Assembly (NCBI GenBank): GCA_013002345.1
Contig: JABDKH010000200.1
Span: forward strand, 664 to 64,663
Length of the DNA stretch: 64,000 nt
From: Rhodothermales bacterium
GTDB taxonomy: Bacteria > Bacteroidota > Rhodothermia > Rhodothermales > JABDKH01
Reading direction: 5' to 3'
Shown one piece after another: positions 37,026 to 53,618 of the stretch. The position numbers were made by a program, and so were the translations under genes. Within the stretch, counting starts at the first letter, position 1. Each line of letters opens with the position of its first letter. Under the pieces are notes generated by a model, which saw nothing but the letters and a program-made list of their open reading frames with translations, was not told where the DNA came from and made no database searches.

Positions 37026-37652
37026 CTACTCCATTTGAGCGATTACGTCCGCCGGCACATCGGCGCGGTCGGCATTCTGACTCCGCTGCAGGGCGCGAAC
37101 ATAACTGACGATCGCCCATCGATCGGCGACCGGTATCTGAGTTCCGTAGCCGGGCATGGTTCGTACGCCGTTGACGACGACGTTGTACAGGTAGCCATCG
37201 GGCTGGGCACGGAGCTCGTCCGAGTGGTACGTAGGCGCCGGCACGTAGCCGTACTCCCCCGTCATGATGATTCCCAATCCATCACCAACGGGTCCATGGC
37301 AGACGCTGCAAAAAATCTTGTACCGTTCTTGCCCCCTGACGAGGAGCTCGCGGGTCATCGGCAGCGGAATGTCGCGCACGAAGGCGCCCGTCTCGTCACG
37401 CCCGAAATAGAACCTGACGTCTTCGCGCAGGAAGCCTCTCGCCACGGTACCGGCCACAAGTGGGCGCATGGCACGACCGTCAGCGAAAAACGGGTTGGCC
37501 GACTGGGGATCGAACCGTTGCTGCCAGTCCATGTTGGGGCTCACGTGTACGGGCGGCTCAGGCGTCGTCGTGCCGCGGCACCCCGCGAGCACGAGCACCG
37601 CCAGGATCGCAGCACCAAATGGCAGGCGTATGATGTATCTGGTTCGGGTCAT
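37026..37652 (-). CDS. actE: Alternative Complex III subunit ActE (monoheme cytochrome c lipoprotein)
   Basis: 208 aa. Lipobox LVLAGC, single CSVCH heme site. The start overlaps the actD stop (ATGA). Confidence 0.88.
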   Translation of the reverse strand: MTRTRYIIRLPFGAAILAVLVLAGCRGTTTPEPPVHVSPNMDWQQRFDPQSANPFFADGRAMRPLVAGTVARGFLREDVRFYFGRDETGAFVRDIPLPMTRELLVRGQERYKIFCSVCHGPVGDGLGIIMTGEYGYVPAPTYHSDELRAQPDGYLYNVVVNGVRTMPGYGTQIPVADRWAIVSYVRALQRSQNADRADVPADVIAQME

Positions 37653-38308
37653 ACGGATTGTTCGGTCTCGGCCACATCCGACGCGGTTTCGTCAACATCT
37701 TCGGGGTCGACCTCCGCTTCCCCGGTATCTTCGATCCATTCCACCATCAGGGCGCCGGCATCTTCCAGGAACTGGCTCGTGCCCGCCCGATCGAACAACC
37801 GGTCGCTCGCTGCTATGTGCAGAAAGAAGGCATCGTCCGTCGCGGCCGCGAATCGCTTGCTGTAGAAGAGTGGGTTGTACGGTCTCGGCAGGCCGTTGAG
37901 TAAAAACATTCCCGCAGCAGCACCCAGCGCTGCAAAAAGAATAGTGAGTTCAAAGATGACCGGGATCGAAGGCTCATATGCGAAGAACGGCTTACCCGAG
38001 ATGTTGAGCGGGTAGTCGACAGCGCCGGTCCACCACTGCAGCAGAATGCCTGCTGCCAGACCCGTCAATCCGCCGCCAAGAGTCAGCAGACCGACCTTCG
38101 AATTGCCGAGCCCCATGGCCCCGTCCATGCCATGGATCGGGAACGGAGTGTGCGTGTCAAAATGCTTGTACCCGGCATCCCTCACAGCCCTGGCTGCGCG
38201 GACCAGCGTTGCCGGATTTGAAAACTCCGCAAGCAGGCCGTAGCCCCCGTCATGCGCGGGCTCGTAGATCCCCATCGTCGCCTTGATAGCACGTATGATC
38301 GCTTTCAT
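37649..38308 (-). CDS. actD: Alternative Complex III subunit ActD (DUF3341)
   Basis: 219 aa. GLLAEF...AARAVRDAGY start and two TM helices. Acidic tail EDTGEAEVDPEDVDETASDVAETEQSV. Confidence 0.85.
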   Translation of the reverse strand: MKAIIRAIKATMGIYEPAHDGGYGLLAEFSNPATLVRAARAVRDAGYKHFDTHTPFPIHGMDGAMGLGNSKVGLLTLGGGLTGLAAGILLQWWTGAVDYPLNISGKPFFAYEPSIPVIFELTILFAALGAAAGMFLLNGLPRPYNPLFYSKRFAAATDDAFFLHIAASDRLFDRAGTSQFLEDAGALMVEWIEDTGEAEVDPEDVDETASDVAETEQSV

Positions 38309-38335
38309 CAGTGTTGATCTCGTTGCATACTCAGC

Positions 38336-39772
38336 CTAATGCGGATGCTCGGAGTGGCCGTGTTCATAGTAGTGCGGATCCGCCTGAGGCATGACGACCT
38401 TGATTTCTGCCATCGCCACCATGGGCAGGAACCGCAGGAACAGGAGGAAGAGGGTGAAGAACAATCCGAACGAACCGACAAGTGTCAGCACGTCAACCCA
38501 GGTCGGGGAATAGTAATCCCACGAACTCGGCAGGTAGTCACGATGCAGCGACGTGACGGTGATGACGAATCGCTCGAACCACATCCCGATGTTCACGATG
38601 ATCGATAGCACGAACATGAATGGAATGCTGCGCCGCAACTTCTTGAACCAGAAGAACTGGGGAAAGAAGAGGTTGCACAACATCATGGTCCAGTAGGCCC
38701 AGGCATACGGGCCGGTCGCTCTGTTGAGAAACGCATACTGTTCGTACTCGACGCCCGAATACCATGCGATGAAGAACTCCGTGATGTACGCGAAGCCGAC
38801 CATGGACCCCGTAAGCAGGATGATCATGTTCATCCTCTCCAGGTGGTTCACCGTGATGATATTCTCCAGGTTGTACGCTTTGCGAGCGATGACGAGAAGA
38901 GTCACCACCATGGCGAAGCCGGAGAAGATGGCACCGGCGACGAAGTACGGGGGGAAGATGGTAGTGTGCCACCCCGGGACAACCGATACCGCGAAGTCAA
39001 ACGACACGACGGAGTGAACCGAAAGGACCAGCGGCGTCGCCAGCGCAGCCAGTAGCAAGTACGCCTTCTCGTAGTTCCGCCAGTGGCGATTCGATCCCGA
39101 CCAGCCAAGAGCCAGGAACGCAAATACGCGACGGCGCAGCAGCGACTTCGCTCGGTCTCGCAGCGTGGCCACATCCGGAACCAGACCGATGTACCAGAAC
39201 ATCAACGACACCGTGAAATACACGGAGACCGCGAACACGTCCCACAACAGCGGGCTCTTGAACTGGGGCCACATCTCCATCTGATTCGGGATGGGCAACA
39301 TCCAGTAGGCGACCCACACACGACCCACGTGGATACCCGGAAAGAGCAGCGCGCAAATGACCGCGAAGATGGTCATGGCCTCTGCCGACCGGTTGATGGC
39401 CGTCCTCCACTGCTGCCGGAAGAGGTATAGAATTGCCGAGATCAGTGTCCCGGCGTGTCCGATACCGACCCAGAAAACGAAGTTGACAATCGCGTAGCCC
39501 CAGCCAACCGGATTGTTCAGGCCCCAGACACCCGTGCCATTCCAGAACAGGTAGGCCACCATGACGCCCAGCAGCAACAGCCCCACGTTTGCAAGGGCGA
39601 ACGCTGCCAGCCAGGTCGTCGGTGTCTTCTTCTCGGTGTGATACGACACCAACTCCGTGACATCGTGAAAACCAAGATTGCCGGCCACCAGAGGCGGATC
39701 TTCGACGTGTCCGTCGCCGCTATGTCCGGGCAGCACGTCTGATGACAAAGCCATGTTCTTCTTGTCCTTCAC
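38336..39772 (-). CDS. actC: Alternative Complex III subunit ActC (NrfD/PsrC-like quinol-interacting membrane subunit)
   Basis: 478 aa with about 10 TM helices. NrfD-like pattern ([31 protein letters not shown]). Confidence 0.9.
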
Positions 39773-39808
39773 GTTGCCAGAATTCGGTTGTTGTCCGCCT
39801 CAGGCTTG

Positions 39809-42800
39809 CTAAACATCTTGTCCTGCAAGAGCAGGATTCGGATTCGTGATTCTTCCGAGATAGGAGGTCCTCGGCTTAACACTGAGTTCGGCGAGTAATT
39901 CGTATCGTCGGTCGCTCTGCCGCATTCGCGTAATCTCGCTCTCGGGATCCCGCATATTCCCAAAAGCAATTGCGCGGGTCGGGCAGGACTGCTGGCAGGC
40001 CGTTCGCACTTCCCCGTCGCGAATCGCACGATCCTCCAGATTGGCCTGCTGGTTGACGGCGCGAACGCGCTGTATGCAGTACGAACACTTCTCCATCACT
40101 CCGCGAGACCGGACCGTAACATCCGGGTTCTGCGTCATGTGAAGACTGGCCGGAAGTGTCTTGACCCAGTTATAAAAATTGAACCGACGAACCTTGTAGG
40201 GACAGTTGTTGGCGCAGTAGCGCGTCCCTATGCATCGGTTGTATATCATCTGATTCGTGCCATCCGGCGAGTGCACCGTCGCTGCCACCGGGCAAACGGA
40301 CTCGCATGGCGCATTTTCGCAGTGCTGGCACGGAAGCGGCTGAAAGACCATCGAAGGACTTGCATCACCTTCAGGTCCGCTGACGAAATAGCGATCGGTG
40401 CGGATCCAGTGCATCTCACGCCCGAGACTCACTTCTTCCTTTCCGACAACCTGGATGTTGTTCTCCGATTGACACGCAACAACGCAGGCCCCGCATCCGG
40501 TACATGCGTTGAGATCGATGGTCATCGCCCACTGCTGTTCGTAGTACGGGTTGTCCTTCGACGGCGCCTGGTCTGCCGGGTGCTGGGATTGCCACAGGGC
40601 CGGATAATCTTCCCAGTCCTCCCCTCCCGGAATGGGTGGCTTCGCGTCGCGCGCGAAAGTAGGATTCGCACGATACTCCTCGATCGTGGCTCGCTGAACC
40701 GGCGCTCGTTTCTCGACCTGCTCAAGATCTGTTTCCAGGGCGCCATGATCCTGCGTAGTCGCGATCATATAGCCGCCGCTTGCACGAGATACGCGCGTCG
40801 CTACACCGATGCCCGGAGCGGCGATTGACCGAAGCGGACCGACGTTCATTCCAACGCCGTTTGACAGCGGGCCCTGACCATAGATGTCGGTGTAATGGTC
40901 GAGGTCAAAGAAGATCCTCCCCCGCTGCTTCCGCGTCGAAGCAATTTCGCGACCGTAACCGAGGTTCAAGGAAATCGAATTGTCGGCGTGTCCCGGGAGC
41001 ACCCAGATCGGAAGCTGCACGGATTGCCCGTCGATCTCGATCTCAGCAACATCGACAAAGTAGCGACCCTTGGACAGCTCCCATTCGAGGCCGAGCCGAT
41101 CCGCTGTGGCGGGACTCATCAGCGCGACATTATCCCAGACCACCTTCGTCGTCGGGTCAGGGAGCTCCTGCAGCCACGAGTTGTTGGCAAAGGAGCCATC
41201 GAAAACGGTAGGATCGAGCCGGAACACGACTTCGACGTCGTTTACGTCCGAGGCGTTGCGGCCAGGCACGGGTGGAATCTGCTGAAGCCGGGGCGTGACG
41301 GGCTCATACGTGGTGCCGGGCAGGAATCCATCATGGAGAACCTTGCGCCAGCCTTTCTCAAAGTCGCCGGATATCATTCGTCGCCACTCCTGTCGGACGA
41401 GATCATAGCCACTACGATCGACTCCCGTGGCCAGAAGATTCAGCAACTCGATATCAGATCTTGAGTCGTAAAGTGGCGCAATGAGCGGCTGGATGACCGA
41501 ATGAGTGCCGTCGAGGGCGCGACCGTCCCCCCAGGCCTCGAGATAGTGCGACGCCGGGATATGCCACATCGCCGCCTGCGCGGTCTCGTCGACGTGCGTG
41601 CCAAGATGGATGGTTTCGCTAACCCGCTTCAGCGCCTCTGAAAATCCCAGCGAGGCCGGCGCATTGTAGACCGGATTTACACCGATCATTACCAGGACGT
41701 CAACGCGACCTGCGTTCAGGTTCTGTACGAGGGCGGGCAGATTTGTCGTGTCCCGAGGCGCATCGATCGCCAGAAGTTCGACCGTATTACCGGGCGCACC
41801 CAGATGCGAGTTGATCGCTGCGCACAGTGCGTGCACTTCGGGAGGTTGCGTCTCTCCGGCGAGCACGACACCGGAACTCCCCGCCTTTCGTAAATCGGCC
41901 GCTATCGCGACAGCATGCGCATCATCCTGAAAGGCGGTCGCGGCCGCGCCAGGAACGCCGAGCAGGGATGCCACGGCTTGCGCGAACGCTCCGATCTCCG
42001 ATGATCGGAGAGGCAGCCGGTGGTCAGCCATCGCGCCGGTAAGCGAGTAGGCGCTCTCGATCGAATACAAGCGGCTCATCGAGTCGTCCGGGCTCTCGAG
42101 CCGTCGGCTATCCGCGAATTCTCGGCTATTGGCCAAAAAATGGCGACTTGTTGGCGCCAGAAAATCGGCGTCAAGACTGACGATCACATTCGCCTGAGAG
42201 AATCGGTAGCGCGGCCGCACATCGCGACCATAGGCCATCTGCATCCCCGCCGCTTCAGCATCAATCCCTGTCGGACTGTGCGTGACCCACTCCAGATCCG
42301 TAAATCGCGATTCCAGCGCCGATCGTACTGCCCGTCGCGTCGGTGAGGAACTCTCGTCTGCGATAACCGCGACCCGTCGTCCTTCGAGCGTCCTGCTAAA
42401 TGCAACAAAGTCAGCCCAGGTCGACGGATTACCGTCACGAAGTACGTTGGTCGAACGGTCCGGATCATAGAGATTCAGCACCGATGCCTGTTCGAACACG
42501 CCGGCCGCACCGAGGCTTACAGGATGCTCCGGATTCCCCTCTACTTTCGTCGGACGGCCCTCATGACTTTCGACAAGCAGTCCGTGGACTGCGCCCCGGA
42601 ATGGCATCGCCGTCGCAAAGAAGAGCGGGATCCCCGGAGTAATCTCCTCCGGCTTTCGAGCATACGGGAGAATCATCTCGACCGGCTTGCGACAGGCCGT
42701 CAGACCCGCCAGAGCCATCGAGGCACCCATCAGCTGAAGGAACTGCCGGCGCGAACTCGCGCCCGGCGTCCCACTGGCACCCGGGAGGAACTCCTCCTTC

Positions 42801-42916
42801 AGAAAGTCCCGATAGGCAGGATCCTTCGTCAGCTGGCTGATACTTCTCCAGAACCGGTCGCGGGGAGTACGGTCGCTGGATTCGACAGCATCTATGATCG
42901 GAAGCTCAATCATCAC
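39809..42916 (-). CDS. actB: Alternative Complex III subunit ActB (molybdopterin-oxidoreductase-like domain fused to an Fe-S domain)
   Basis: 1035 aa. Tat motif SRRQFLQLMGASMALAGLTAC. C-terminal ferredoxin-type clusters CTGCGACVVACQSENN, CQHCENAPCESVCP, CIGTRYCANNCPYKVRRFN. Confidence 0.93.
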   Translation of the reverse strand: MMIELPIIDAVESSDRTPRDRFWRSISQLTKDPAYRDFLKEEFLPGASGTPGASSRRQFLQLMGASMALAGLTACRKPVEMILPYARKPEEITPGIPLFFATAMPFRGAVHGLLVESHEGRPTKVEGNPEHPVSLGAAGVFEQASVLNLYDPDRSTNVLRDGNPSTWADFVAFSRTLEGRRVAVIADESSSPTRRAVRSALESRFTDLEWVTHSPTGIDAEAAGMQMAYGRDVRPRYRFSQANVIVSLDADFLAPTSRHFLANSREFADSRRLESPDDSMSRLYSIESAYSLTGAMADHRLPLRSSEIGAFAQAVASLLGVPGAAATAFQDDAHAVAIAADLRKAGSSGVVLAGETQPPEVHALCAAINSHLGAPGNTVELLAIDAPRDTTNLPALVQNLNAGRVDVLVMIGVNPVYNAPASLGFSEALKRVSETIHLGTHVDETAQAAMWHIPASHYLEAWGDGRALDGTHSVIQPLIAPLYDSRSDIELLNLLATGVDRSGYDLVRQEWRRMISGDFEKGWRKVLHDGFLPGTTYEPVTPRLQQIPPVPGRNASDVNDVEVVFRLDPTVFDGSFANNSWLQELPDPTTKVVWDNVALMSPATADRLGLEWELSKGRYFVDVAEIEIDGQSVQLPIWVLPGHADNSISLNLGYGREIASTRKQRGRIFFDLDHYTDIYGQGPLSNGVGMNVGPLRSIAAPGIGVATRVSRASGGYMIATTQDHGALETDLEQVEKRAPVQRATIEEYRANPTFARDAKPPIPGGEDWEDYPALWQSQHPADQAPSKDNPYYEQQWAMTIDLNACTGCGACVVACQSENNIQVVGKEEVSLGREMHWIRTDRYFVSGPEGDASPSMVFQPLPCQHCENAPCESVCPVAATVHSPDGTNQMIYNRCIGTRYCANNCPYKVRRFNFYNWVKTLPASLHMTQNPDVTVRSRGVMEKCSYCIQRVRAVNQQANLEDRAIRDGEVRTACQQSCPTRAIAFGNMRDPESEITRMRQSDRRYELLAELSVKPRTSYLGRITNPNPALAGQDV

Positions 42917-42954
42917 TGAGTGCTCAGCGCAAGGCGAAGGATTTTGAAAAACTC

Positions 42955-43602
42955 TTAATAGTGACAGGCCGAACAGTTGGTAGGCGGCCGAATGCCCTCC
43001 TCCACAATTCGGTCCAGATTTCTGTCGACAAAGTCGACAGGGTGTACGTAACCCATCGTCGTGATCTCATCGGACGGCCGAAGATAGAGCTCGGGCTGGC
43101 GATGACACTCCAGGCACCATCCCATCGACAGCGGCTCTTTTAACAGGACGACCTCCATCTGGTCAACGCGGCCGTGGCATGTCTCGCAGCCCACTCCATT
43201 CTTGACGTGAACCGCGTGACTGAACCGGGCATAATCGGGCAGTTGGTGAACGTTCACCCAGTTTACCGGATCTCCGGTGGCCCAACTCGCCCTGACAGGG
43301 AGAAGCTTGAGGCTCTCCGTCTTGATCTGGTTGTGACAGTTCATGCACGTCTGCGTGGCCGGCACGTTCGCGTGCGACGAGTACTCTACGGCGCTGTGGC
43401 AATAGCGACAGTCCATGCCCAGCTGACCAACGTGTGTCAGATGGCTGTACTGGGTCGGCTGCTCTGGTTCATATCCGACGTCCGTGAATTCGGGCGAGAA
43501 ATAGTACCAGACGAGGAAGATGGTCAGGATACCGCCCCCTGTCGCGCCGAGAAGTGATAATAGCGGCAGGGCGTTCGCCCTCTTCGGAAATACCTGAGGC
43601 AT
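42955..43602 (-). CDS. actA: Alternative Complex III subunit ActA (pentaheme cytochrome c)
   Basis: 215 aa. N-terminal TM anchor and five CxxCH sites (CRYCH, CMNCH, CETCH, CLECH, CSACH). Confidence 0.93.
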   Translation of the reverse strand: MPQVFPKRANALPLLSLLGATGGGILTIFLVWYYFSPEFTDVGYEPEQPTQYSHLTHVGQLGMDCRYCHSAVEYSSHANVPATQTCMNCHNQIKTESLKLLPVRASWATGDPVNWVNVHQLPDYARFSHAVHVKNGVGCETCHGRVDQMEVVLLKEPLSMGWCLECHRQPELYLRPSDEITTMGYVHPVDFVDRNLDRIVEEGIRPPTNCSACHY

Positions 43603-45279: not shown

Positions 45280-47358
45280 GTGTCTACACGGAACCCTGCA
45301 CTGACACCCGAGACATCGCCCCCGCCCTCGTCCTTGACGCACAAGGTCGATGTCTCCGTGATCATTGTTAACTACAACGTGCGCGAGTTTCTCGAGCAGG
45401 CTCTGGCTTCGGTCCTCAGTGCAGCCGACGGACTGCGAGTAGAAGTCATCGTCGTCGACAACGACTCTGTCGATGGATCCGCGGAGTCTGTTCGAAACAA
45501 CTTTCCGCAGGTCCGCTTGATTGCAAACACGTCCAACGTCGGATTCGGCGCCGCGAATAATCAGGCGATCGAAGTATCGTCCGGCAGGTTTCTGCTGATC
45601 CTCAATCCTGATACGATTATTCAGGAGGACACGCTTGAGACGCTCGTCGACTTCATGCAACGTCATCCCGACGCGGGCGCGGTCGGTTGCAAGATTCTGA
45701 ATCCGGACGGCACGTTCGCTCGCGAAAGCCGCCGGGCCTTTCCTACCCCGCGAGTGGCCTCGTATCGCATCACCGGGCTGAGCCGGCTGTTCCCCCGTAG
45801 TCCCCGGTTCGGTCGATACAATATGACGTACCTGCCCATCGACGAGGTGGCAGAGGTGGACGCTCTCAGCGGCTCGTGTATGATGATTCGACGCACAGCC
45901 CTCTGCTCAGCCTACGGGGCCGAGTCATCCGGCCCGACTGATCAACGACTCGTCCGCCTGTTCGACGAGGATTTTTTCATGTATGGCGAAGATCTTGACC
46001 TGTGCTATCGAATACAGGCCGCCGGCTGGAAGATCTACTATACCCCCGAGACTCAGATCATTCACTACAAGGGAGAAAGCACGAGAAAGGGTGATCTTAG
46101 ATACGTTCGGCTTTTTTATGGTGCGATGTTGCACTTCGCTGACAAGCATTTTACAAAGCGCTCCCGCATGCTGCGATTCGGATTGCGGATGGCGATCGTC
46201 GTTCGGGCCACGATCTCCGTTGTCCGTCGAACAGTCCGGCGACTTGCCTTTCCGGCGTTGGATCTTGTTTTTGTTTACGCTTCGGTTGTGGGCATAGCCG
46301 CCGTCTGGCCCGCGACGGCGAATACGGCGTCGACCTCTCGATTCCTTCTGACAATCCCGCTCATTTACGCCGCTGCTGCGGTCGCAAGCATCCGCCTGGC
46401 CGGTGGCTACGAGCGTACGAGACAACGCCTCCGACCGGTTGCGATCGGCCTCACAGGTGCTTTCGCGTTTACCGCGTCTCTGTCGTTCTTTATCAAAGCG
46501 ATTGCGTTCTCGCGGCTCGTCATTGCCGTGAGTCTGGTCCCGGCCGCAATTCTATTGTTGGGATGGAGGATCGCGGTGAACAAACGGAACAGCGGCGTGA
46601 GGCGCGCGATCGTCGTCGGTGACAGCGCTGAAGCCGTTCAACTGGAACAGACGATTTCATCCCAGTATCGACCCCCGTTCGTCGTCGCAGGGTACGTCGA
46701 GAACGAGGCGGCCACGGATCCCGACGCAAGCATGTCCGTCCGCCGCCTGGGATCAATCGCGCAGCTGCGCGACGTCGTTCGCATTCATCGGATCGACGAC
46801 GTCATCTTCGCCACCAGTGGACTTTCAAACAGAACAGTGTTGTCGCTGATGCAATCGCTGAGGGACCTGCCGGTCGAATTCAAGACGCTGGTGCCAGGCG
46901 GGAGCCACGTGATCGGAAAGGCTCGTGTAGAGGACCTCTCTGTACCACTTGTCCCCTCCGAGATCACCCACGGCAGAGCAGCCGGTTTCGCAGGGCAAAA
47001 GCTTGCGCATCGACTCATCGCACTCATTGGCATTCTCCTGTGGCCAATTGCAGAGGTGTTGTCGGCCGTAATCTCAAGCCCGAGGTTGGCTCGCCTCACA
47101 AACAAACTGCGAATGACGCCTCGAGTCCTTTGGGGCAAGGACGCGCTGGTGGGATTTCTGCCGCATGACGAGTTCGTTCCACCCGATGAGTGGCGAATCG
47201 AGCGAGGGCTGTTTTCGGTGTCAGAAACCCTCCCGATCATCCACCCCGGTGCGGCAGACCTTGAGCGCGCCTGGCTATTCTACATGCATAATCGGTCGAT
47301 ATCTCTCGACATCGACATCATTGCAAGAAGTCTGAGACGCGATCAGGCAACTGACTGA
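45280..47358 (+). CDS. family 2 glycosyltransferase fused to a WbaP-like membrane/Rossmann scaffold with a degenerate sugar-transferase C-terminus
   Basis: 692 aa, GTG start. GT2 N-terminus (VSVIIVNYNVREFL, VVDNDSVDGS, FMYGEDLDLCYR). TM helices at about residues 300-440. RRAIVVGDSAEAVQLEQ Rossmann-like region. The C-terminus aligns only partly with the bacterial sugar transferase domain of ORF 50009-51397. Confidence 0.85.
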   Translation: MSTRNPALTPETSPPPSSLTHKVDVSVIIVNYNVREFLEQALASVLSAADGLRVEVIVVDNDSVDGSAESVRNNFPQVRLIANTSNVGFGAANNQAIEVSSGRFLLILNPDTIIQEDTLETLVDFMQRHPDAGAVGCKILNPDGTFARESRRAFPTPRVASYRITGLSRLFPRSPRFGRYNMTYLPIDEVAEVDALSGSCMMIRRTALCSAYGAESSGPTDQRLVRLFDEDFFMYGEDLDLCYRIQAAGWKIYYTPETQIIHYKGESTRKGDLRYVRLFYGAMLHFADKHFTKRSRMLRFGLRMAIVVRATISVVRRTVRRLAFPALDLVFVYASVVGIAAVWPATANTASTSRFLLTIPLIYAAAAVASIRLAGGYERTRQRLRPVAIGLTGAFAFTASLSFFIKAIAFSRLVIAVSLVPAAILLLGWRIAVNKRNSGVRRAIVVGDSAEAVQLEQTISSQYRPPFVVAGYVENEAATDPDASMSVRRLGSIAQLRDVVRIHRIDDVIFATSGLSNRTVLSLMQSLRDLPVEFKTLVPGGSHVIGKARVEDLSVPLVPSEITHGRAAGFAGQKLAHRLIALIGILLWPIAEVLSAVISSPRLARLTNKLRMTPRVLWGKDALVGFLPHDEFVPPDEWRIERGLFSVSETLPIIHPGAADLERAWLFYMHNRSISLDIDIIARSLRRDQATD

Positions 47359-47462: not shown

Positions 47463-48527
47463 TTGATGTCTAAGCTCCAGGAACAGCATTTGTTGGATTT
47501 CGAGAGGCCGTTGCACGACCTCGAGCAGAAGCTCATCGAAATGCGATCGGTCGACGACGCCGACGTCGAGGTGGACCTCAGTCCGCAGATCGAGGCCCTC
47601 GAGAGACGCGTAGACGAGCTCCGGACATCGATCTACCGAAATTTGACGCGGTGGCAGCGGGTCCAGATTGCCCGACATCCGCTTCGGCCGTACACGCTCG
47701 ACTATATCGAGGCGCTGACCGACGGCTTCGTAGAACTTCACGGAGACCGTCTATTCATGGATGACCCGGCCATAGTCGGCGGGTTGACGAAGTTCAAGGG
47801 TTCGCGGTTCGGATATCGCGATCGGACTGTCGTGATAATCGGTCACCAGAAGGGTCGGGACACGAAGAGCCGGAAGTACCGTCGATTTGGCATGCCGAAT
47901 CCGGAGGGCTACCGCAAAGCACTGCGGCTAATGAAGATGGCCGCGAAATATGGCAAGCCTGTCGTCACACTCCTCGACACACCGGGCGCATTCCCCGGCC
48001 TGGAAGCGGAAGAGCGAGGACAGGCGGAAGCCATCGCACGCAATCTGTTCGAAATGGCGAGATTGCCGGTACCCGTCGTGGTTATCGTAATCGGCGAAGG
48101 AGCGTCGGGTGGTGCACTGGGGATCGGTGTCGGCAACCGCGTTCTTATGCTCGAGAACTCGTGGTACTCGGTCATCTCCCCTGAGAGTTGTTCGTCCATC
48201 TTGTGGCGATCGTGGGATCACAAGGAAGATGCAGCCCGGGCACTCAAGCTCACGGCACCCGATCTCGCCGAGGTGGGTATCATCGATGAGATCATCCCGG
48301 AACCCAAAGGTGGTGCGCATCGCAACGTCAATGCCACCTTCGATGCAGTGGGGCATGCACTTGCGAGCGCTCTCAAGAAACTGGAAAAAATGTCTCCTGC
48401 AAAACTCGTCTCCTCTCGAATCGAGAAGTTCGATGCCATCGGTGCATATGAAACGAGTCAGATCGGAGAGACTCCGGCTACTGCTCCGCTGGCGGACAAT
48501 CTGAAGGTTGATCGGCCCACGGACTAG
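47463..48527 (+). CDS. accA: acetyl-CoA carboxylase carboxyltransferase subunit alpha
   Basis: 354 aa. [38 protein letters not shown]. An ATG at 47466 immediately follows the TTG at 47463. Confidence 0.94.
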
Positions 48528-48553: not shown

Positions 48554-48976
48554 ATGCTCTCTTTCGACTACCGGCACCGGGTACGCTATCGTGAATGCGA
48601 TCCCATGGGTGTCGTTTACCACACGCACTACCTCGACTACTTCGAGATCGCTCGAACAGAGGCCCTCCGGGACCTTGGTTTACCGTACGCCGAGCTGGAG
48701 GAAGCGGGAATCAGCATGCCGGTCACGGACGTTTCGGTGCAGTATCGCAGATCTGCAACCTATGACGATGTCCTTATTATCCGATCGATCTTTCCGGAAA
48801 CTGTACCGGTGGCAAGGGTAAAGATCGAATACGTCGTCTTCCGGGAAGACGTGCCAGACGACGTTATCGCGACGGGACATGTAACGCTGTGCTTCATGGA
48901 CACGGCCCGCGGGCGCCCCACCAGGGCTCCTCGACGCCTGGTCGAAATTATTGAGCGGGAACTCGCAAGAACCTGA
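48554..48976 (+). CDS. acyl-CoA thioesterase, YbgC/4HBT hotdog family
   Basis: 140 aa. RVRYRECDPMGVVYHTHYLDYFEIARTEALRDLG. Confidence 0.88.
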   Translation: MLSFDYRHRVRYRECDPMGVVYHTHYLDYFEIARTEALRDLGLPYAELEEAGISMPVTDVSVQYRRSATYDDVLIIRSIFPETVPVARVKIEYVVFREDVPDDVIATGHVTLCFMDTARGRPTRAPRRLVEIIERELART

Positions 48977-49882
48977 ATGCCGCAGATCGATCGACCCGAG
49001 TATATCTCCGATGAATATCTAACCGACGTTATCCGCACCGGCCTGGCGGAGGACGTCGGAGACGGCGACGTGACTTCGTTGGCCACCGTATCACCGGACA
49101 CACGCGCCGAAGGAGATTTCGTTTGCAAGCAGGACGGAGTATTGGCCGGCCTGTCGGTGGCCTCACAGGTCTTTCGGATGGTAGATGACAGCATTGGCGT
49201 TTCGTGGAAGATCTCGGATGGCGCGAACGTGAGGGCGGGCGATGTGGCGGGAACGGTCCGTGGACCCGCGATCAGCATTCTTACAGCCGAACGGCTCGCC
49301 TTGAACATCCTCCAGCGCATGGGCGGAATTGCGACGATGACACGAGAGATGGTGGATGCCGTCGCGTCGTATCGCACGAAGATTCTTGACACGCGAAAAA
49401 CGGCCCCGGGACTTCGACTCCTTGACAAGTGGGCGGTCCTCCTCGGTGGCGGGACAAATCACAGAATCGGCCTCTACGACATGATTCTCATCAAGGAGAA
49501 TCATATCTCGTCGGCCGGTGGAATTGAGAACGCCATCTCCGCTGCACGGAAGTACGCCAACAACAGCGCTACTCCGCTGAAGATCGAAGTTGAAGTCACG
49601 ACGCTCGATGAAGTGAGACGGGCGCTTCGGATGGGAGGGATTGACTATCTCTTGCTGGATAATATGACTTCGGTCGATCCTGACGGCCATCTTGATACGT
49701 CCCTGCTCACCGCCGCGGTCGAACTGGTGGACGGCGCAGTCGAGACGGAGGCATCCGGCAACGTGACTCTTGAGACCGTCACCCGCATCGCCCGGACCGG
49801 CGTGAACAACATCTCCTGCGGCGCATTGACCCATTCGGTACAGGCTCTCGACATCTCGCTACTGCTAAACCTCCACGATTAG
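48977..49882 (+). CDS. nadC: nicotinate-nucleotide diphosphorylase (carboxylating), quinolinate phosphoribosyltransferase
   Basis: 301 aa. AERLALNILQRMGGIAT, TRKTAPGLR, HRIGLYDMILIKENH, LLDNM. The ATG follows the upstream stop with no gap. Confidence 0.93.
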   Translation: MPQIDRPEYISDEYLTDVIRTGLAEDVGDGDVTSLATVSPDTRAEGDFVCKQDGVLAGLSVASQVFRMVDDSIGVSWKISDGANVRAGDVAGTVRGPAISILTAERLALNILQRMGGIATMTREMVDAVASYRTKILDTRKTAPGLRLLDKWAVLLGGGTNHRIGLYDMILIKENHISSAGGIENAISAARKYANNSATPLKIEVEVTTLDEVRRALRMGGIDYLLLDNMTSVDPDGHLDTSLLTAAVELVDGAVETEASGNVTLETVTRIARTGVNNISCGALTHSVQALDISLLLNLHD

Positions 49883-50008: not shown

Positions 50009-51397
50009 ATGCTACAGGAGCATAGCCGACTGTTCCAGCGCATGATGTTCGCCGGCGATTTCGTGCTGACGATTGTCGCATGGATCCTGGCCTATCTCAT
50101 CCGGTTCGAGCTGCTCGTTCCCCCTGAGTGGGTGCCCTTCGAGCGGTATCTGTATTTGTTGCCGTGGGTTCTGATCGTCGCGTCGCTGGTTTTCTGGTCC
50201 ACGGGCCTGTATGCGGCTGACCGGGCTCAACGTATATCCAGCCTCGTCTTTGCGGTGGCGAAGGCGGTGGCCGTTGAATTGCTGGTTGTCGCCGCGTCCC
50301 TCTCTTTCTATCGAGCACTCTCCTTTTCCCGGCTGATGCTCATCCTGTTCGGGGTGCTGACCCCAACACTGATGATCCTCTACCGGCTCGCCATCTACTC
50401 CTACGTACGTCGGGCACGACGCCAGGGGAAGTTCGTGCGGCGCGTGCTGATTGTGGGAGCGGGAACAGTGGGTCGCAGACTCCAGCAAGCCCTGGAGCAA
50501 TTCCCCTGGATGGGCCTGGTCGTCGTCGGATTTGCGGACGACGAAAAGCAGGGCCCGGATATCCTGTCGGGGGTCGCGGATGTGGCACGGATCGTCGACG
50601 AATCACACGACACGGACGAGCCCGTCGACTACGTCTTCATCGCGTTGTCTCTGTCGGCGGCGGACCATATTGCCAATCTCATCGAAGACCTCTCAAGCCG
50701 CCTCGTGCACGTTTGCATGGTTCCGGACCTGTTTCAGTTTGATGTCCTGAATAGTCGGGTCACTCATCTTGCCGGGCTTCCCGTCATTCATGTGATTGAC
50801 GAGGCTCCGATTCAGATGGGTCGTTTCTGGAAACGGGCTGTCGATATCGTGTTTTCGGCCGTTGTTCTGACCCTCACATCGCCGCTTCTGCTTGTTCTGG
50901 CGATCGCGGTCAAGCTGTCATCCTCCGGTCCTGTTTTTTACCGGCAGGAACGGATGGGACTGAACGGGCGAAAGTTCCAGATGCTGAAGTTTCGCTCGAT
51001 GCCCGTGAATGCGGAGCGCGACACGGGTCCGGTGTGGGCCAAGGCTGGCGAGGCGCGCGCAACTCGGGTGGGCGCATTTCTGAGACGGTCGTCGCTGGAT
51101 GAGCTTCCGCAATTTATCAATGTGATCAGGGGCGATATGTCTGTCGTGGGTCCTCGACCTGAACGGCCGGTATTCATCGATGAGTTCAAGGAGCGAATTC
51201 CCGGATACATGTTGCGACACATGACCAAGGCAGGTATCACCGGCTGGGCTCAGGTTCACGGATGGCGTGGCAATACGTCACTCGAGAAGCGTATCGAATA
51301 CGACCTGTACTACATACAGAATTGGTCCCTCGTCCTTGATCTGAAGATTATGTGGATGACGGTATGGGGCGGACTCGCGAGCGAGAATGCGTACTAG
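50009..51397 (+). CDS. undecaprenyl-phosphate hexose-1-phosphate transferase (WbaP/WcaJ-type polyprenyl glycosylphosphotransferase)
   Basis: 462 aa. N-terminal TM bundle and Rossmann-like RRVLIVGAGTVGRRL. Catalytic domain PVFYRQERMGLNGRKFQMLKFRSM, DELPQFINVIRGDMSVVGPRPERP, YDLYYIQNWSLVLDLKI. Confidence 0.92.
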   Translation: MLQEHSRLFQRMMFAGDFVLTIVAWILAYLIRFELLVPPEWVPFERYLYLLPWVLIVASLVFWSTGLYAADRAQRISSLVFAVAKAVAVELLVVAASLSFYRALSFSRLMLILFGVLTPTLMILYRLAIYSYVRRARRQGKFVRRVLIVGAGTVGRRLQQALEQFPWMGLVVVGFADDEKQGPDILSGVADVARIVDESHDTDEPVDYVFIALSLSAADHIANLIEDLSSRLVHVCMVPDLFQFDVLNSRVTHLAGLPVIHVIDEAPIQMGRFWKRAVDIVFSAVVLTLTSPLLLVLAIAVKLSSSGPVFYRQERMGLNGRKFQMLKFRSMPVNAERDTGPVWAKAGEARATRVGAFLRRSSLDELPQFINVIRGDMSVVGPRPERPVFIDEFKERIPGYMLRHMTKAGITGWAQVHGWRGNTSLEKRIEYDLYYIQNWSLVLDLKIMWMTVWGGLASENAY

Positions 51398-52655
51398 CGG
51401 CATGATCAAGAGCCACGGACGGTGTTCCGTAAGGTCCGGGCGACCGACGAGAACTGCGTTCGCGCCGCGAACGCTCGGGATGATCGTGATGGCGTGCCTT
51501 CTCTGCACGGACGTCGCGCTGAGCCAGATCTATCGCCTTCCGAATCCAGCCGAGCGGGCCGGCGACTTTTTCGGGGTGTCGGTCGATATCGAGGGTCATC
51601 GTGCCGCAGTGGGAGCAAGTGGTGCTGACGGCTGCGGTGCGGATTCCGGAGCGACATACGTCTATGAATCAGACAGCACAACCGGCCACTGGAATCATGT
51701 GGCCACGCTAGTACCAGACGACTGCACGCCGGGAGATTTCTTCGGTAGATCGCTGGACATGAGCGGAGACCGCATCGTCGTCGCAGCGTTCAGGCCGGCG
51801 CATCTGGCGAATCGCCCGAATGCCGCCTACCTGTTCGAGCGCGACTCGCTGACGGGCGCGTGGATCCAGCGAGCACGGTTCACGGAGGTACCTGAACGCG
51901 AAGAGGGAGCGTACGCGGCAGCCGTTGCGATTGACGGGGACAACGTTCTGGTTACGTCGTCGGGAGACGCCATCAACGAACAGTACCACGGAACGGGATA
52001 CCTGTACCGGCCTTCGCCGAACGCGCCTGACACGTGGCGATTGACGCAACGGATTGTCCCGGCGACGAGTCCCTCGCTCGGGGTTTTCGGGTCCTCAGCC
52101 GTGATCCGGAATGATGTGATGGTCGTAGGTGCCTCTACCTACCTTGCAGCCCGCCCCGGCTCCGTCTATTTCCTCGGACTCGATGAGTCGACCGGTCGAT
52201 GGAAATTCCAGCAGCGATTTGGGGGCCTCGACGATTTCTTCCTTCCACTTGACGTCAACGGACGTCGAGCGATCGTCGGCGAGCGACGGGCTGGAAGTGA
52301 CGAATCCGGACGGGCGACGCTATTTGAACGTGACGCCGAAGGTGCGTGGATTCGATCGGGAGTTCTATACCCGGCGCGGGATTTCGAGTACGGAGCGTTC
52401 GGATCAAACGTCGCGCTGGGCGACGACCGAGCGCTTGTGGTCGGCTTCGACGAACAGCTTCGGTTCGAGTTCAACATCGACCGGGTCGTGTACGTGTTCG
52501 AGAAGACCGGACCCTCAGCATGGCGACAACGACACATCGTGGACGTGGGTGATGTTGCGTTCGGGTCTGATCTGGCCGTGGACGGGTCGCTGGCGCTGAT
52601 CGGCCAGGCCGCCGATTCAAAACCAGGCGCTGCGTACATCGTCCAGTTGCACTAG
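51387..52655 (+). CDS. secreted seven-bladed FG-GAP-like beta-propeller protein
   Basis: Seven repeats of the type FFGVSVDIEGHRAAVGASG, FFGRSLDMSGDRIVVAA, YAAAVAIDGDNVLVTS, VFGSSAVIRNDVMVVGAS, FFLPLDVNGRRAIVGE, AFGSNVALGDDRALVVG, AFGSDLAVDGSLALIGQ. The start is ambiguous (ATG 51387, 51402 or 51480); ATG 51480 gives signal peptide MIVMACLLCTDVALSQ. Confidence 0.8.
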   Translation: MRTSGMIKSHGRCSVRSGRPTRTAFAPRTLGMIVMACLLCTDVALSQIYRLPNPAERAGDFFGVSVDIEGHRAAVGASGADGCGADSGATYVYESDSTTGHWNHVATLVPDDCTPGDFFGRSLDMSGDRIVVAAFRPAHLANRPNAAYLFERDSLTGAWIQRARFTEVPEREEGAYAAAVAIDGDNVLVTSSGDAINEQYHGTGYLYRPSPNAPDTWRLTQRIVPATSPSLGVFGSSAVIRNDVMVVGASTYLAARPGSVYFLGLDESTGRWKFQQRFGGLDDFFLPLDVNGRRAIVGERRAGSDESGRATLFERDAEGAWIRSGVLYPARDFEYGAFGSNVALGDDRALVVGFDEQLRFEFNIDRVVYVFEKTGPSAWRQRHIVDVGDVAFGSDLAVDGSLALIGQAADSKPGAAYIVQLH

Positions 52656-52667
52656 AGGAATGACACT

Positions 52668-53618
52668 ATGAGACTTCGCGACTGCGCCGCTATTGCCAGA
52701 CTGTCGTGTCTTGCACTCGCATTCGTTCTCTTCTCCGGCTGCAAAACGATCGGAGTTGAGCAGAGCTCAGCCCCGTCATACGTTCGGGCGGCCGAGAACT
52801 ATCGCCACTTCAAGGATGCCGGTGCACTCTCCGCGTACCTGCGGTACTCATCCGATGCGGGTCCCCTTCTCAGCGCGCACCGCGGGGGTCCAACCCCGGG
52901 TTACCCGGAGAACTGCCTCGCAACCATGGATAGAGTCTTGCAGACGGCTCCGGCGCTGCTTGAAGTAGATGTACGCATGACAGCCGACAGCACTCTAATC
53001 CTGATTCACGACGACGAACTTGCACGGACGACGACCGGAAGCGGGTTGGTCGAGAAGCATTCGCTGGCGGAAATTCGTGCGCTTCTTCTGCGAGACGAGC
53101 GCGGGATCATTACCCCCTTTCGGGTTCCGACGCTTGCCGAGGCCCTGGACTGGGCTGAAGCACGTGCTGTTCTGACGCTGGACGTCAAGCCGGGCCTCGC
53201 TCCAGAGTTGCTCATCAACGCAATACGCAAGCACGAGGCGGGGGGACGTGTCGTCATCATCGTTTACAGTATCCCGGATCTGATGGCGTTCACAGGGACA
53301 GCTCCTGATCTGATGTACTCTGTGCCGGCAGAATCCGAGCGGGACCTTCTCGCGGCTCTAGACTCCGGTGTGGATGCCGAAAGAATCGTTGTGTGGACGG
53401 GAGTCGGCGAAATTCGACCTGAAGTGATTCGTCTGGCACACGCTCGCGGCATTCGCACCATGATGGGCACGTTCGGGGAAATCGACGAGCGGGCAGCCGC
53501 TGCGGGCGCGACGATCTACGAGGCCCTGCTGCAATCCGGAGTCGATGTCATTGCGACAGATCGCGTCGCGGATGTAGCCGGGGCGATCAACACATTCACC
53601 GGATTCGAAACTCCGTGA
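52668..53618 (+). CDS. glycerophosphodiester phosphodiesterase family lipoprotein
   Basis: 316 aa. Lipobox VLFSGC. GDPD motifs LLSAHRGGP..YPENC, LEVDVRMTADSTLILIHDD. Confidence 0.85.
   Translation: MRLRDCAAIARLSCLALAFVLFSGCKTIGVEQSSAPSYVRAAENYRHFKDAGALSAYLRYSSDAGPLLSAHRGGPTPGYPENCLATMDRVLQTAPALLEVDVRMTADSTLILIHDDELARTTTGSGLVEKHSLAEIRALLLRDERGIITPFRVPTLAEALDWAEARAVLTLDVKPGLAPELLINAIRKHEAGGRVVIIVYSIPDLMAFTGTAPDLMYSVPAESERDLLAALDSGVDAERIVVWTGVGEIRPEVIRLAHARGIRTMMGTFGEIDERAAAAGATIYEALLQSGVDVIATDRVADVAGAINTFTGFETP

Follow-up and report, generated by a model that had tools for sequence, protein, structure and literature searches.

The reading frame and its domains

A stretch of 64,000 nucleotides from a Rhodothermales genome (assembly GCA_013002345.1, contig JABDKH010000200.1, positions 664 to 64,663 of the forward strand; this whole stretch is called the window here) contains, at positions 45280-47358, a gene for a protein in which a GT2 glycosyltransferase is joined to a membrane module resembling the large monotopic phosphoglycosyltransferases (PGTs; large form, LgPGT) such as WbaP and WcaJ. 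The protein is referred to below as the fusion. The original prediction, made from the sequence of the window, had proposed that the PGT part has lost its catalytic core and is kept as a scaffold. The reading frame is present, as are all the peptide strings quoted at that time from the fusion and from the product of a second gene at 50009-51397. Comparison with relatives from many lineages indicates that the fusion belongs to an ancient family spanning the Fibrobacteres-Chlorobi-Bacteroidetes (FCB) group, rather than being a local oddity.

The N-terminal part had been described as a complete GT2 domain, and this holds. Pfam Glycos_transf_2 (PF00535) matches residues 26-205 with 95.6 bits (cut-off 23.3), and the domain as a whole extends over residues 25-290. 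Across 111 sequences, positions D65, N109-P110-D111, E237-D238, H262, and K264 are invariant, and the acidic motifs D60/D65, N109-P110-D111, and E237-D238 vary little or not at all. By analogy, we take these acidic residues to be the nucleotide-binding Asp, the DXD-type motif, and the (E)D base. Profile score, acidic motifs, and the GT-A fold recovered by AlphaFold2 and Foldseek all place the domain in GT2. The named NCBIfam families that it resembles most are HpsE, EpsD, TuaG, PglI, WcaE, WcaA, and AglG; these closest families mostly act on oligosaccharides linked to a lipid diphosphate (lipid-PP) or are polysaccharide GT2s. In some members (P0012, P0047, P0113), a variable stretch of low complexity, up to ~90 residues long, is inserted into the GT2 domain after the D194 strand and ahead of the FFMYGED motif (alignment columns ~245-350, after window residue ~213). 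The insertion is short in the window protein, and the confidence of the AlphaFold2 model is lower there.

Behind the GT2 domain, transmembrane helices and a Rossmann-like segment had been likened to the N-terminal half of WbaP, and the profile alignments agree. CoA_binding_3 (PF13727) matches residues 377-534 with 60.2 bits (cut-off 25), while TIGR03025 of NCBIfam aligns residues 327-591 to positions 2-277 of its 445, a region that comprises only the N-terminal half of an LgPGT and the start of its re-entrant helix. The four-helix transmembrane bundle is 30% identical over 91 residues to that of the 50009-51397 product (BLASTP), and the LgPGT hallmark F410-S411-R412 is present in the fourth helix, with S411 conserved in 100% and R412 in 99% of the family. 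Many members of the Bacteroidia type no longer reach a CoA_binding_3 match in Pfam.

Measured against the features that define an LgPGT, the fusion is therefore a partial one. The N-terminal portion (four-helix bundle plus CoA_binding_3/DUF) is found by Pfam, TIGR03025, and AlphaFold2, and a re-entrant helix with a basic start and a conserved Pro is found by sequence alignment to the KRxxD helix of WbaP. A complete Bac_transf domain and the Asp-Glu dyad (DE[LIV]PQ) are missing, and the NCBIfam scores lie below their cut-offs (75.8 against 295.55 for TIGR03025; 61.1 against 410.75 for TIGR03023).

The AlphaFold2 model, computed from an alignment of 111 homologs, has a mean pLDDT of 86 and a pTM of 0.79. 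The GT-A domain (25-290) has a pLDDT above 90 over most of its length, and the top Foldseek matches of this region are GT2/GT-A enzymes only (e.g., 6p61, TMt 0.82). It is followed by a long Arg-rich interface helix that is continuous with the first transmembrane helix (296-342); the remaining transmembrane helices lie at 352-373, 385-404, and 411-438. The Rossmann-like domain (441-537) consists of alternating strands and helices, and leads into a hairpin (543-552) of lower pLDDT in this monomer model and a linker (554-566) of low confidence. The 120-residue tail is compact, with a pLDDT above 90, and contains helices at 570-597, 601-611, 613-617, 658-670, and 674-686 and strands at 622-624 and 642-645. 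The Arg/Lys-rich loops at 374-384 and 436-442 fit a cytoplasmic placement of all soluble parts, as in WbaP. The coordinates of these elements and of the genes downstream are collected in Table 1.

Table 1. Elements of the fusion gene and co-directional downstream genes, in window coordinates.
Feature	Position	Strand	Basis or remark
Whole open reading frame, 692 aa	45280-47358	+	GTG start; GT2, interface helix, four transmembrane helices, DUF, hairpin, truncated PGT tail
GT2 (GT-A fold) catalytic domain, residues 25-290	45352-46149	+	Pfam, invariant columns, Foldseek
Arg-rich interface helix (residues 296-317) leading into four-helix transmembrane bundle (~322-438)	46165-46593	+	AlphaFold2, TIGR03025, BLASTP
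CoA_binding_3 / "DUF" Rossmann-like LgPGT domain, residues 440-537	46597-46890	+	PF13727, AlphaFold2
Beta-hairpin GSHVIGKARVEDL, residues 541-553	46900-46938	+	AlphaFold2 strands 543-545 and 550-552; conservation
Re-entrant-membrane-helix remnant, residues 570-597, with K574 and P589	46987-47070	+	Alignments to WbaP and to PGT profiles
Deletion junction, residues 598-609, including N608-K609 at the place of the dyad	47071-47106	+	Profile alignments
VLWGKDALVG, remnant of NVLxGDMSxVGPRP	47125-47154	+	Profile alignments
ERGLFSV (residues 641-647), degenerate PGxTGxxQ loop	47200-47220	+	HHalign register
C-terminal helices AWLFYMHNRSISLDIDIIARSLR, remnant of YDxYYxxNxSxxxDxxI	47269-47337	+	BLASTP, profile alignments
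accA	47463-48527	+	Pfam
4HBT thioesterase	48554-48976	+	Pfam
nadC	48977-49882	+	Pfam
WcaJ-type LgPGT with DELPQ dyad; candidate partner or initiating enzyme	50009-51397	+	TIGR03023, WbaP structures in PDB

The C-terminal tail and the phosphoglycosyltransferase core

The original prediction held that the last part of the protein aligns only with the two ends of the sugar-transferase domain, and that the block holding the catalytic Asp-Glu pair has no counterpart. Bac_transf (PF02397) is indeed not matched in the fusion by Pfam, including when the isolated tail is scanned at E<=10. More sensitive comparisons recover the relationship and the gap together. When a profile of 23 tails was run against the PDB (E<=10), only five sequences matched, all of them PGTs (four WbaP entries and PglC). 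They matched in three collinear pieces: RRAFE and the adjoining helix of the fusion align with WbaP 264-305, "artrqlpkVlaGrraLvGyrp" with "DELPQLFNVLKGEMSLVGPRP" of WbaP (382-402), and "fYvrNqSasLDldIi" with WbaP 448-467.

A hidden Markov model (HMM) of the PGT domain, built from 105 relatives of the WcaJ-type protein of the window, detects family members from other lineages with E-values of 4e-15 (L027), 3e-13 (L042), 4e-12 (L055), 1e-11 (L024), and 6e-11 (L018), the matches in other phyla spanning 4e-15 to 1e-8. The matches always fall into two pieces, at HMM positions 2-45 and ~110-200. In a direct comparison by HHalign, a family-wide profile of 194 tails aligned with the PGT profile at a probability of 98.6% (E 1.4e-15) over 131 columns, with ~65 template columns left without a counterpart. 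By these profile comparisons, the tail is a true homolog of Bac_transf. It also preserves more than the two ends, since the helix behind the dyad is retained, as is a degenerate PGxTG loop, ERGLFSV, which is clear as PGITGL in members from Cytophagia and Ignavibacteria.

What has been lost is a contiguous core of ~65 residues, and every alignment method applied recovers this deletion. The lost block comprises the PxFxQxRxG...KFRSM hairpin, the variable loop that follows, and the helix ending in SLDE (motif string PxFxQxRxG...KFRSM...R..G.FLR..SLDE). In PglC, the active site is centred on Asp93-Glu94 (PMC10186338). In the window protein, the position of this dyad falls in a gap (HHalign) or opposite N608-K609 (23-tail profile against the PDB). 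With the register anchored on the VLxGxxxLVG motif, none of the 150 members that could be anchored has Asp-Glu at the dyad columns; the first position is occupied by A/R/E/S and the second by R/A/K/F. The possibility that an intact dyad had been overlooked is thus answered in the negative, and the alignment to WbaP and PglC upholds the deletion.

Spread, conservation and gene neighbourhood

More than 6800 database proteins match the fusion. The best 120 matches, all from Rhodothermales or from metagenome-assembled genomes (MAGs) of Bacteroidota, are 660-775 aa long and 43-94% identical, nearly all of them align over almost the whole query, and they share its Pfam architecture. In a survey of one genome per GTDB species, relatives were found in at least 594 species genomes of the FCB group. 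The best 80 of these belong to Rhodothermales, Balneolales, Bacteroidia, Flavobacteriales, Chitinophagales, Cytophagia, Ignavibacteriota, Candidatus Kryptonia, and Marinimicrobia, and typically share 33-46% identity across window residues ~23-687.

Among the 80 loci, 444-494 residues follow the FFMYGED motif in nearly all complete reading frames. The exceptions are L005 (531) and L011 (515), which are longer, and L067 and L070, which end early. A full-size PGT domain was found in none of the 80 loci. The near-constant length of the tail and the lack of any full PGT domain imply that the deletion is ancient and fixed.

A frameshift, a chimera, or an assembly artefact had been named as conditions that would undo the original prediction. 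These are ruled out by the recurrence of the full-length protein in at least 594 species genomes and by its near-constant tail length. Likewise, the uniform GC content (57-60%) and the synteny kept with distant relatives rule out an assembly artefact or an island acquired by horizontal gene transfer. Stand-alone scaffold proteins were also considered, but the matches of 370-410 aa mostly start at an internal Met of the GT2 C-terminus (MYGED..., AM(L)xFxxKHF) and look like fragments from contig edges, and a split version of the protein is not claimed. Some members have long additional C- or N-terminal regions, namely P0369 (1359 aa), P0352 (678 aa), and L005 (a 1031-aa reading frame). One record, L064, is labelled as a betaproteobacterial MAG of Comamonadaceae and has a gene context of the Bacteroidia type (recR, TPR/PD40); probably its binning or label is mistaken, rather than the family extending beyond FCB.

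Conservation is unevenly distributed along the protein. For the window protein, identity to close and distant relatives, respectively, is 72% and 57% in the GT2 domain, 36% and 22% in the four-helix bundle, 45% and 26% in the DUF, and 32% and 20% in the tail; judged from these values, selective constraint is much stronger on the GT2 than on the scaffold. Within the C-terminal half, the residues kept family-wide are R309, D328, G375, Y377, F410-S411-R412, R430, G447, G471, G491, F510, I545-G546, K/R574, P589, V616, G619, G625, G643, Y668, and D677. In the hairpin, I545 is conserved in 88% and G546 in 98% of members. Position 574, a Lys in the window protein, is Arg in 91%, P589 is found in 93%, and G643 in 91%; G625 is invariant in alignments of the Rhodothermales type and present in 93% family-wide, and Y668 and D677 reach 99%. 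Conservation is lowest at the deletion junction (591-610). The retained residues are hallmarks of LgPGT membrane and dimer architecture, not of catalysis. The suggestion that the inactive PGT part persists as a membrane or oligomerisation scaffold fits the retention of FSR, K/R574, P589, VLxGxxxLVG, Y668, D677, and the I545-G546 hairpin.

In the window, the fusion gene is followed co-directionally by accA, a 4HBT thioesterase gene, nadC, the gene for the WcaJ-type LgPGT, an FG-GAP repeat gene, and a GDPD gene. No terminator is predicted between these genes, although the scan for promoters and terminators was uninformative, its counts being at or below shuffle expectation. The 50009-51397 product, described earlier as the bona fide initiating transferase, is a complete LgPGT of the WcaJ type: it scores 482.7 bits with TIGR03023 (cut-off 410.75), matches WbaP structures at 2e-36, and has an intact DELPQ. 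Its gene overlaps the start of the FG-GAP repeat gene (51387-52655) by 11 nt. A GDPD-family phosphodiesterase gene (52668-53618) comes after the FG-GAP gene. The two are odd company for an initiating transferase, with no other glycan gene nearby, and no glycan cluster was found further downstream in the window. Just upstream of the fusion gene, on the reverse strand at window positions 37649-43602, lies an operon resembling Alternative Complex III, whose members include a multihaem cytochrome c (42955-43602), a 1035-aa Fe-S subunit (39809-42916), and an NrfD-type membrane subunit (38336-39772). The Fe-S and cytochrome genes precede the family gene in L001, a distant relative, as well.

The order fusion, accA, 4HBT thioesterase, nadC is shared by the window with other Rhodothermales, Candidatus Kryptonium, and Ignavibacteriota, an unusually deep synteny of a glycosyltransferase gene with housekeeping genes of fatty-acid and NAD metabolism. 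Two other Rhodothermales relatives (~50% identity) keep a reverse-strand MatE gene, the fusion, accA, and the 4HBT gene, and have no LgPGT gene nearby. In Candidatus Kryptonium (L010, 5998-10421), the order is Wzy_C, GT4, LgPGT, DegT, a small GT2, fusion, accA, 4HBT, nadC, nadB; here the fusion closes a classical Wzx/Wzy-type glycan cluster.

The original prediction had further suggested that the fusion is coupled to the transferase encoded downstream, and on this point the support is partial. LgPGT neighbours were counted in 81 loci as matches of more than 100 bits within ~6 kb on the same strand. A true LgPGT lies near the fusion in 18 of these loci, the window included, and 17 of the 18 carry DE[LIVF]PQ. 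Three arrangements occur. The LgPGT gene is two to three genes upstream in Ignavibacteriota, Kryptonia, and several unclassified Bacteroidota, four to five genes downstream in the window, a Rhodothermales MAG (L053), and an unclassified Bacteroidota MAG (L005), and two genes downstream in one Balneolales genome. In 13 loci, a Wzx-like gene is found downstream of the fusion. As a rough guide, a bacterium has a few LgPGT genes per 4 Mb of genome, and 18 in ~1 Mb of flanking sequence would then be a strong enrichment. Against the suggestion, an LgPGT is absent from the vicinity of the gene in Bacteroidia, Flavobacteriales, Chitinophagales, and the two Rhodothermales relatives. In Bacteroidia loci (L006, L012, L015, and others), recR adjoins the gene (19 loci), often together with a large TPR plus PD40 (TolB-like) protein or a protein of the lipoyl/E2 type.

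Related systems, possible roles and significance

Several known systems share a part of this architecture. LgPGTs (WbaP, WcaJ, CpsE; TIGR03022/03023/03025; PDB 8T53) have, in the same order as the fusion, the four-helix bundle with FSR, the CoA_binding_3/DUF domain, the hairpin, a re-entrant helix with a Pro, and motifs of the VLxGxxxLVG, PGxTG, and YYxxNxSxxxDxxI kind. The fusion differs from them in lacking ~65 core residues, the Asp-Glu dyad, and a Bac_transf match, in its sub-cut-off scores, and in the GT2 domain added at its N-terminus. Monotopic PGTs are divided into small, large, and bifunctional classes, the last of which (BiPGTs) combine an active PGT core with a glycosyltransferase or acetyltransferase (PMC11626204). 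Like a BiPGT, the fusion has a glycosyltransferase and a PGT-derived domain on one polypeptide and would act in a lipid-linked glycan pathway; however, BiPGTs are defined around an active core, whereas in the fusion this core is deleted, the PGT part is degenerate, and LgPGT accessory domains are carried. The module of four transmembrane helices and DUF is also reused by PglF-like UDP-sugar dehydratases as a non-catalytic membrane and dimerisation module (PMC10942596). There it precedes the dehydratase and has no PGT remnant; in the fusion it follows the GT2, with the re-entrant helix and the C-terminal PGT helices still present. Finally, the GT2s of Wzx/Wzy pathways (WcaA/WcaE, PglI, HpsE, EpsD) have the same GT-A fold and GT2 motifs, and the fusion has a Wzx/Wzy-like context in Kryptonia and Ignavibacteriota (LgPGT, DegT, GT4, Wzy_C, and Wzx genes). 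Those enzymes are 250-330 aa long, peripheral, and strain-variable, in contrast to the fusion, which is ~650-720 aa long and membrane-integral, with 57-72% identity of its GT2 across phylum-level distances.

The family keeps the dimerisation and DUF parts of WbaP and the re-entrant helix while the core is deleted, and for this reason it is read here as a GT2 on a non-catalytic scaffold. The interpretation preferred, with moderate confidence, is that of a membrane-anchored GT2 acting in an LgPGT-initiated pathway for a lipid-linked glycan, on a non-catalytic scaffold derived from an LgPGT. An active inverting GT2 would be permanently tethered at the cytoplasmic face of the inner membrane by a module descended from a large monotopic PGT of the WbaP/WcaJ type. 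Of the LgPGT architecture, this tether keeps the four transmembrane helices, the DUF (in WbaP, the part that binds nucleotides and dimerises) together with the swap hairpin, and both the re-entrant and the C-terminal helices of the PGT fold. Its catalytic core is gone, a loss that would predate the divergence of the FCB lineages. Without the core and the dyad, the module could not itself make a polyprenyl-diphosphate sugar; it would rather serve as an anchor and dimerisation platform that sets the GT2 active site at the membrane surface. A separate, active LgPGT would start a polyprenyl-(di)phosphate-linked intermediate, to which the GT2 would then add a sugar; in the window, the candidate for this LgPGT is the WcaJ-like gene at 50009-51397. 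A Wzx-type flippase would flip the product. We infer the activity and acceptor of the GT2, the dimerisation, the nucleotide sensing, the cooperation with an LgPGT, and the loss of PGT activity from the comparisons set out above.

In WbaP, the dimer is held mainly by a domain-swapped hairpin between the DUFs, and the DUF binds UMP, UDP, and UTP (PMC10942596). The hairpin of the fusion lies at the same position, and by this analogy the scaffold is probably dimeric. The conservation of the GT2 suggests the same donor and acceptor across FCB, as in a housekeeping glycoconjugate and not a strain-variable O-antigen.

Several points weigh against the preferred reading. In Bacteroidia, Flavobacteriales, and Chitinophagales (42 of the 81 loci), no LgPGT or glycan gene is found nearby, the neighbours being recR and other housekeeping genes, so that it is the deeper-branching lineages that carry the link to a glycan pathway. 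The 18 LgPGT-linked loci are themselves phylogenetically clustered, and perhaps amount to about three independent observations. Nor need the acceptor be a polyprenyl-linked glycan. A Foldseek search of the PDB with a model of the tail alone gave no match, which leaves the PGT remnant without structural support and makes the case for it one of sequence profiles. In addition, no biochemical or genetic characterisation of any family member was found in the literature, and the database names of members are generic ("GT2 family glycosyltransferase", "O-antigen biosynthesis protein"). With a Bacteroidales MAG member (L047, "uncultured Bacteroidaceae") as the query, a search for characterised orthologs returned only generically named MAG proteins.

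Pairing of a pseudoenzyme with an active paralog is a common pattern, and the most plausible of the competing readings, although unlikely, follows it: the dead-PGT scaffold would form an obligate heterodimer by hairpin swap between the four-helix/DUF modules, not with itself, but with an active LgPGT paralog, giving a complex of two enzymes for initiation and the second step in which the undecaprenyl diphosphate sugar is channelled directly to the GT2. This is the coupling of the original prediction in its strong form. The conserved hairpin and DUF are exactly the elements by which WbaP dimerises (PMC10942596), and a dyad-bearing LgPGT stays close to the fusion gene in three gene orders; yet most loci of the Bacteroidia type and those of L001 and L002 have no LgPGT nearby, and the scaffold is only ~30% identical to the LgPGT of the window, over 91 aa. 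A wider version, about as unlikely, sees an ancient pseudo-PGT, fixed before the FCB phyla split, that heterodimerises with an active LgPGT via hairpin and DUF and thereby unites initiation and first elongation of a universally conserved FCB housekeeping glycoconjugate in one membrane complex. It is rather improbable that the protein is instead an undecaprenyl phosphate sugar synthase of the GtrB/ArnC/DPMS type, whose PGT remnant has been kept for its re-entrant helix, which would still bind polyprenyl phosphate and hand it to the GT2 site. The succession of GT2, interface helix, and transmembrane helices does resemble DPMS and GtrB, both DPMS (5mlz) and PcManGT (6yv7) are among the sequence and fold matches, the re-entrant-helix hallmarks K/R574 and P589 are kept, and in many lineages the gene is solitary and housekeeping-like. 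However, the best NCBIfam matches are of other kinds, with PpgS reaching only E 0.02, and the transmembrane bundle is homologous to that of LgPGTs, not to the helices of GtrB. A motif of the FFMYGEDLDWCYR type and a long insertion at 150-200 are typical of COG1216-type GT2s with lipid-PP-linked or polymer acceptors.

Two further readings have very little probability. That the tail is a working PGT with non-canonical residues, which would make the protein a truly bifunctional BiPGT, is suggested by a marginal precomputed PF02397 match in three members and by the survival of several PGT motifs. It is opposed by the loss of ~65 core residues in every member examined, by the lack of any conserved acidic pair at or near the dyad position (0 of 150), around which the active site of PglC is centred (PMC10186338), and by the junction being the most variable part of the protein. 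A processive polysaccharide synthase of the BcsA/HAS/PgaC type, with the transmembrane helices forming a translocation channel, is equally hard to credit. Hyaluronan, chitin, and cellulose synthases do appear in the Foldseek list with long alignments, PF13632 gives a weak match, and PgaC and NodC are among the NCBIfam matches, but the superpositions are poor (root-mean-square deviation 15-19 A, TM ~0.25-0.35), the Q(Q/R)xRW motif of such synthases is absent from the fusion, and the bundle and the part downstream of it are homologous to LgPGTs.

Monotopic PGTs are studied closely because they catalyse the committed step that opens bacterial glycoconjugate synthesis. Superfamily surveys collect sequences via the intact catalytic domain, and a core-deleted family would therefore probably escape them. 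The literature searched contains no description of the fusion family, of a dyad-less scaffold derived from a PGT, or of a BiPGT lacking the dyad; an earlier mention in a PNAS 2021 sequence-network study of PGT fusions is possible. The family is of interest to specialists in bacterial glycoconjugate assembly, and the case for it rests on inference.

For the biology of these bacteria, the retention of LgPGT accessory architecture for hundreds of millions of years without catalysis argues that this architecture has a function of its own, be it anchoring, dimerisation, nucleotide sensing, or handling of the lipid carrier. The family may also serve structural and interaction studies as a naturally "catalysis-free" LgPGT scaffold. 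Were the heterodimer reading true, the monotopic PGT superfamily would gain its first known pseudoenzyme, as far as literature searches show, and a conserved glycan pathway that is so far unassigned in Bacteroidota and their relatives would become accessible to study. A shared glycoconjugate of the FCB group, as yet uncharacterised, is indicated by how extremely the GT2 is conserved across Rhodothermales, Bacteroidia, Ignavibacteriota, Kryptonia, and Marinimicrobia.

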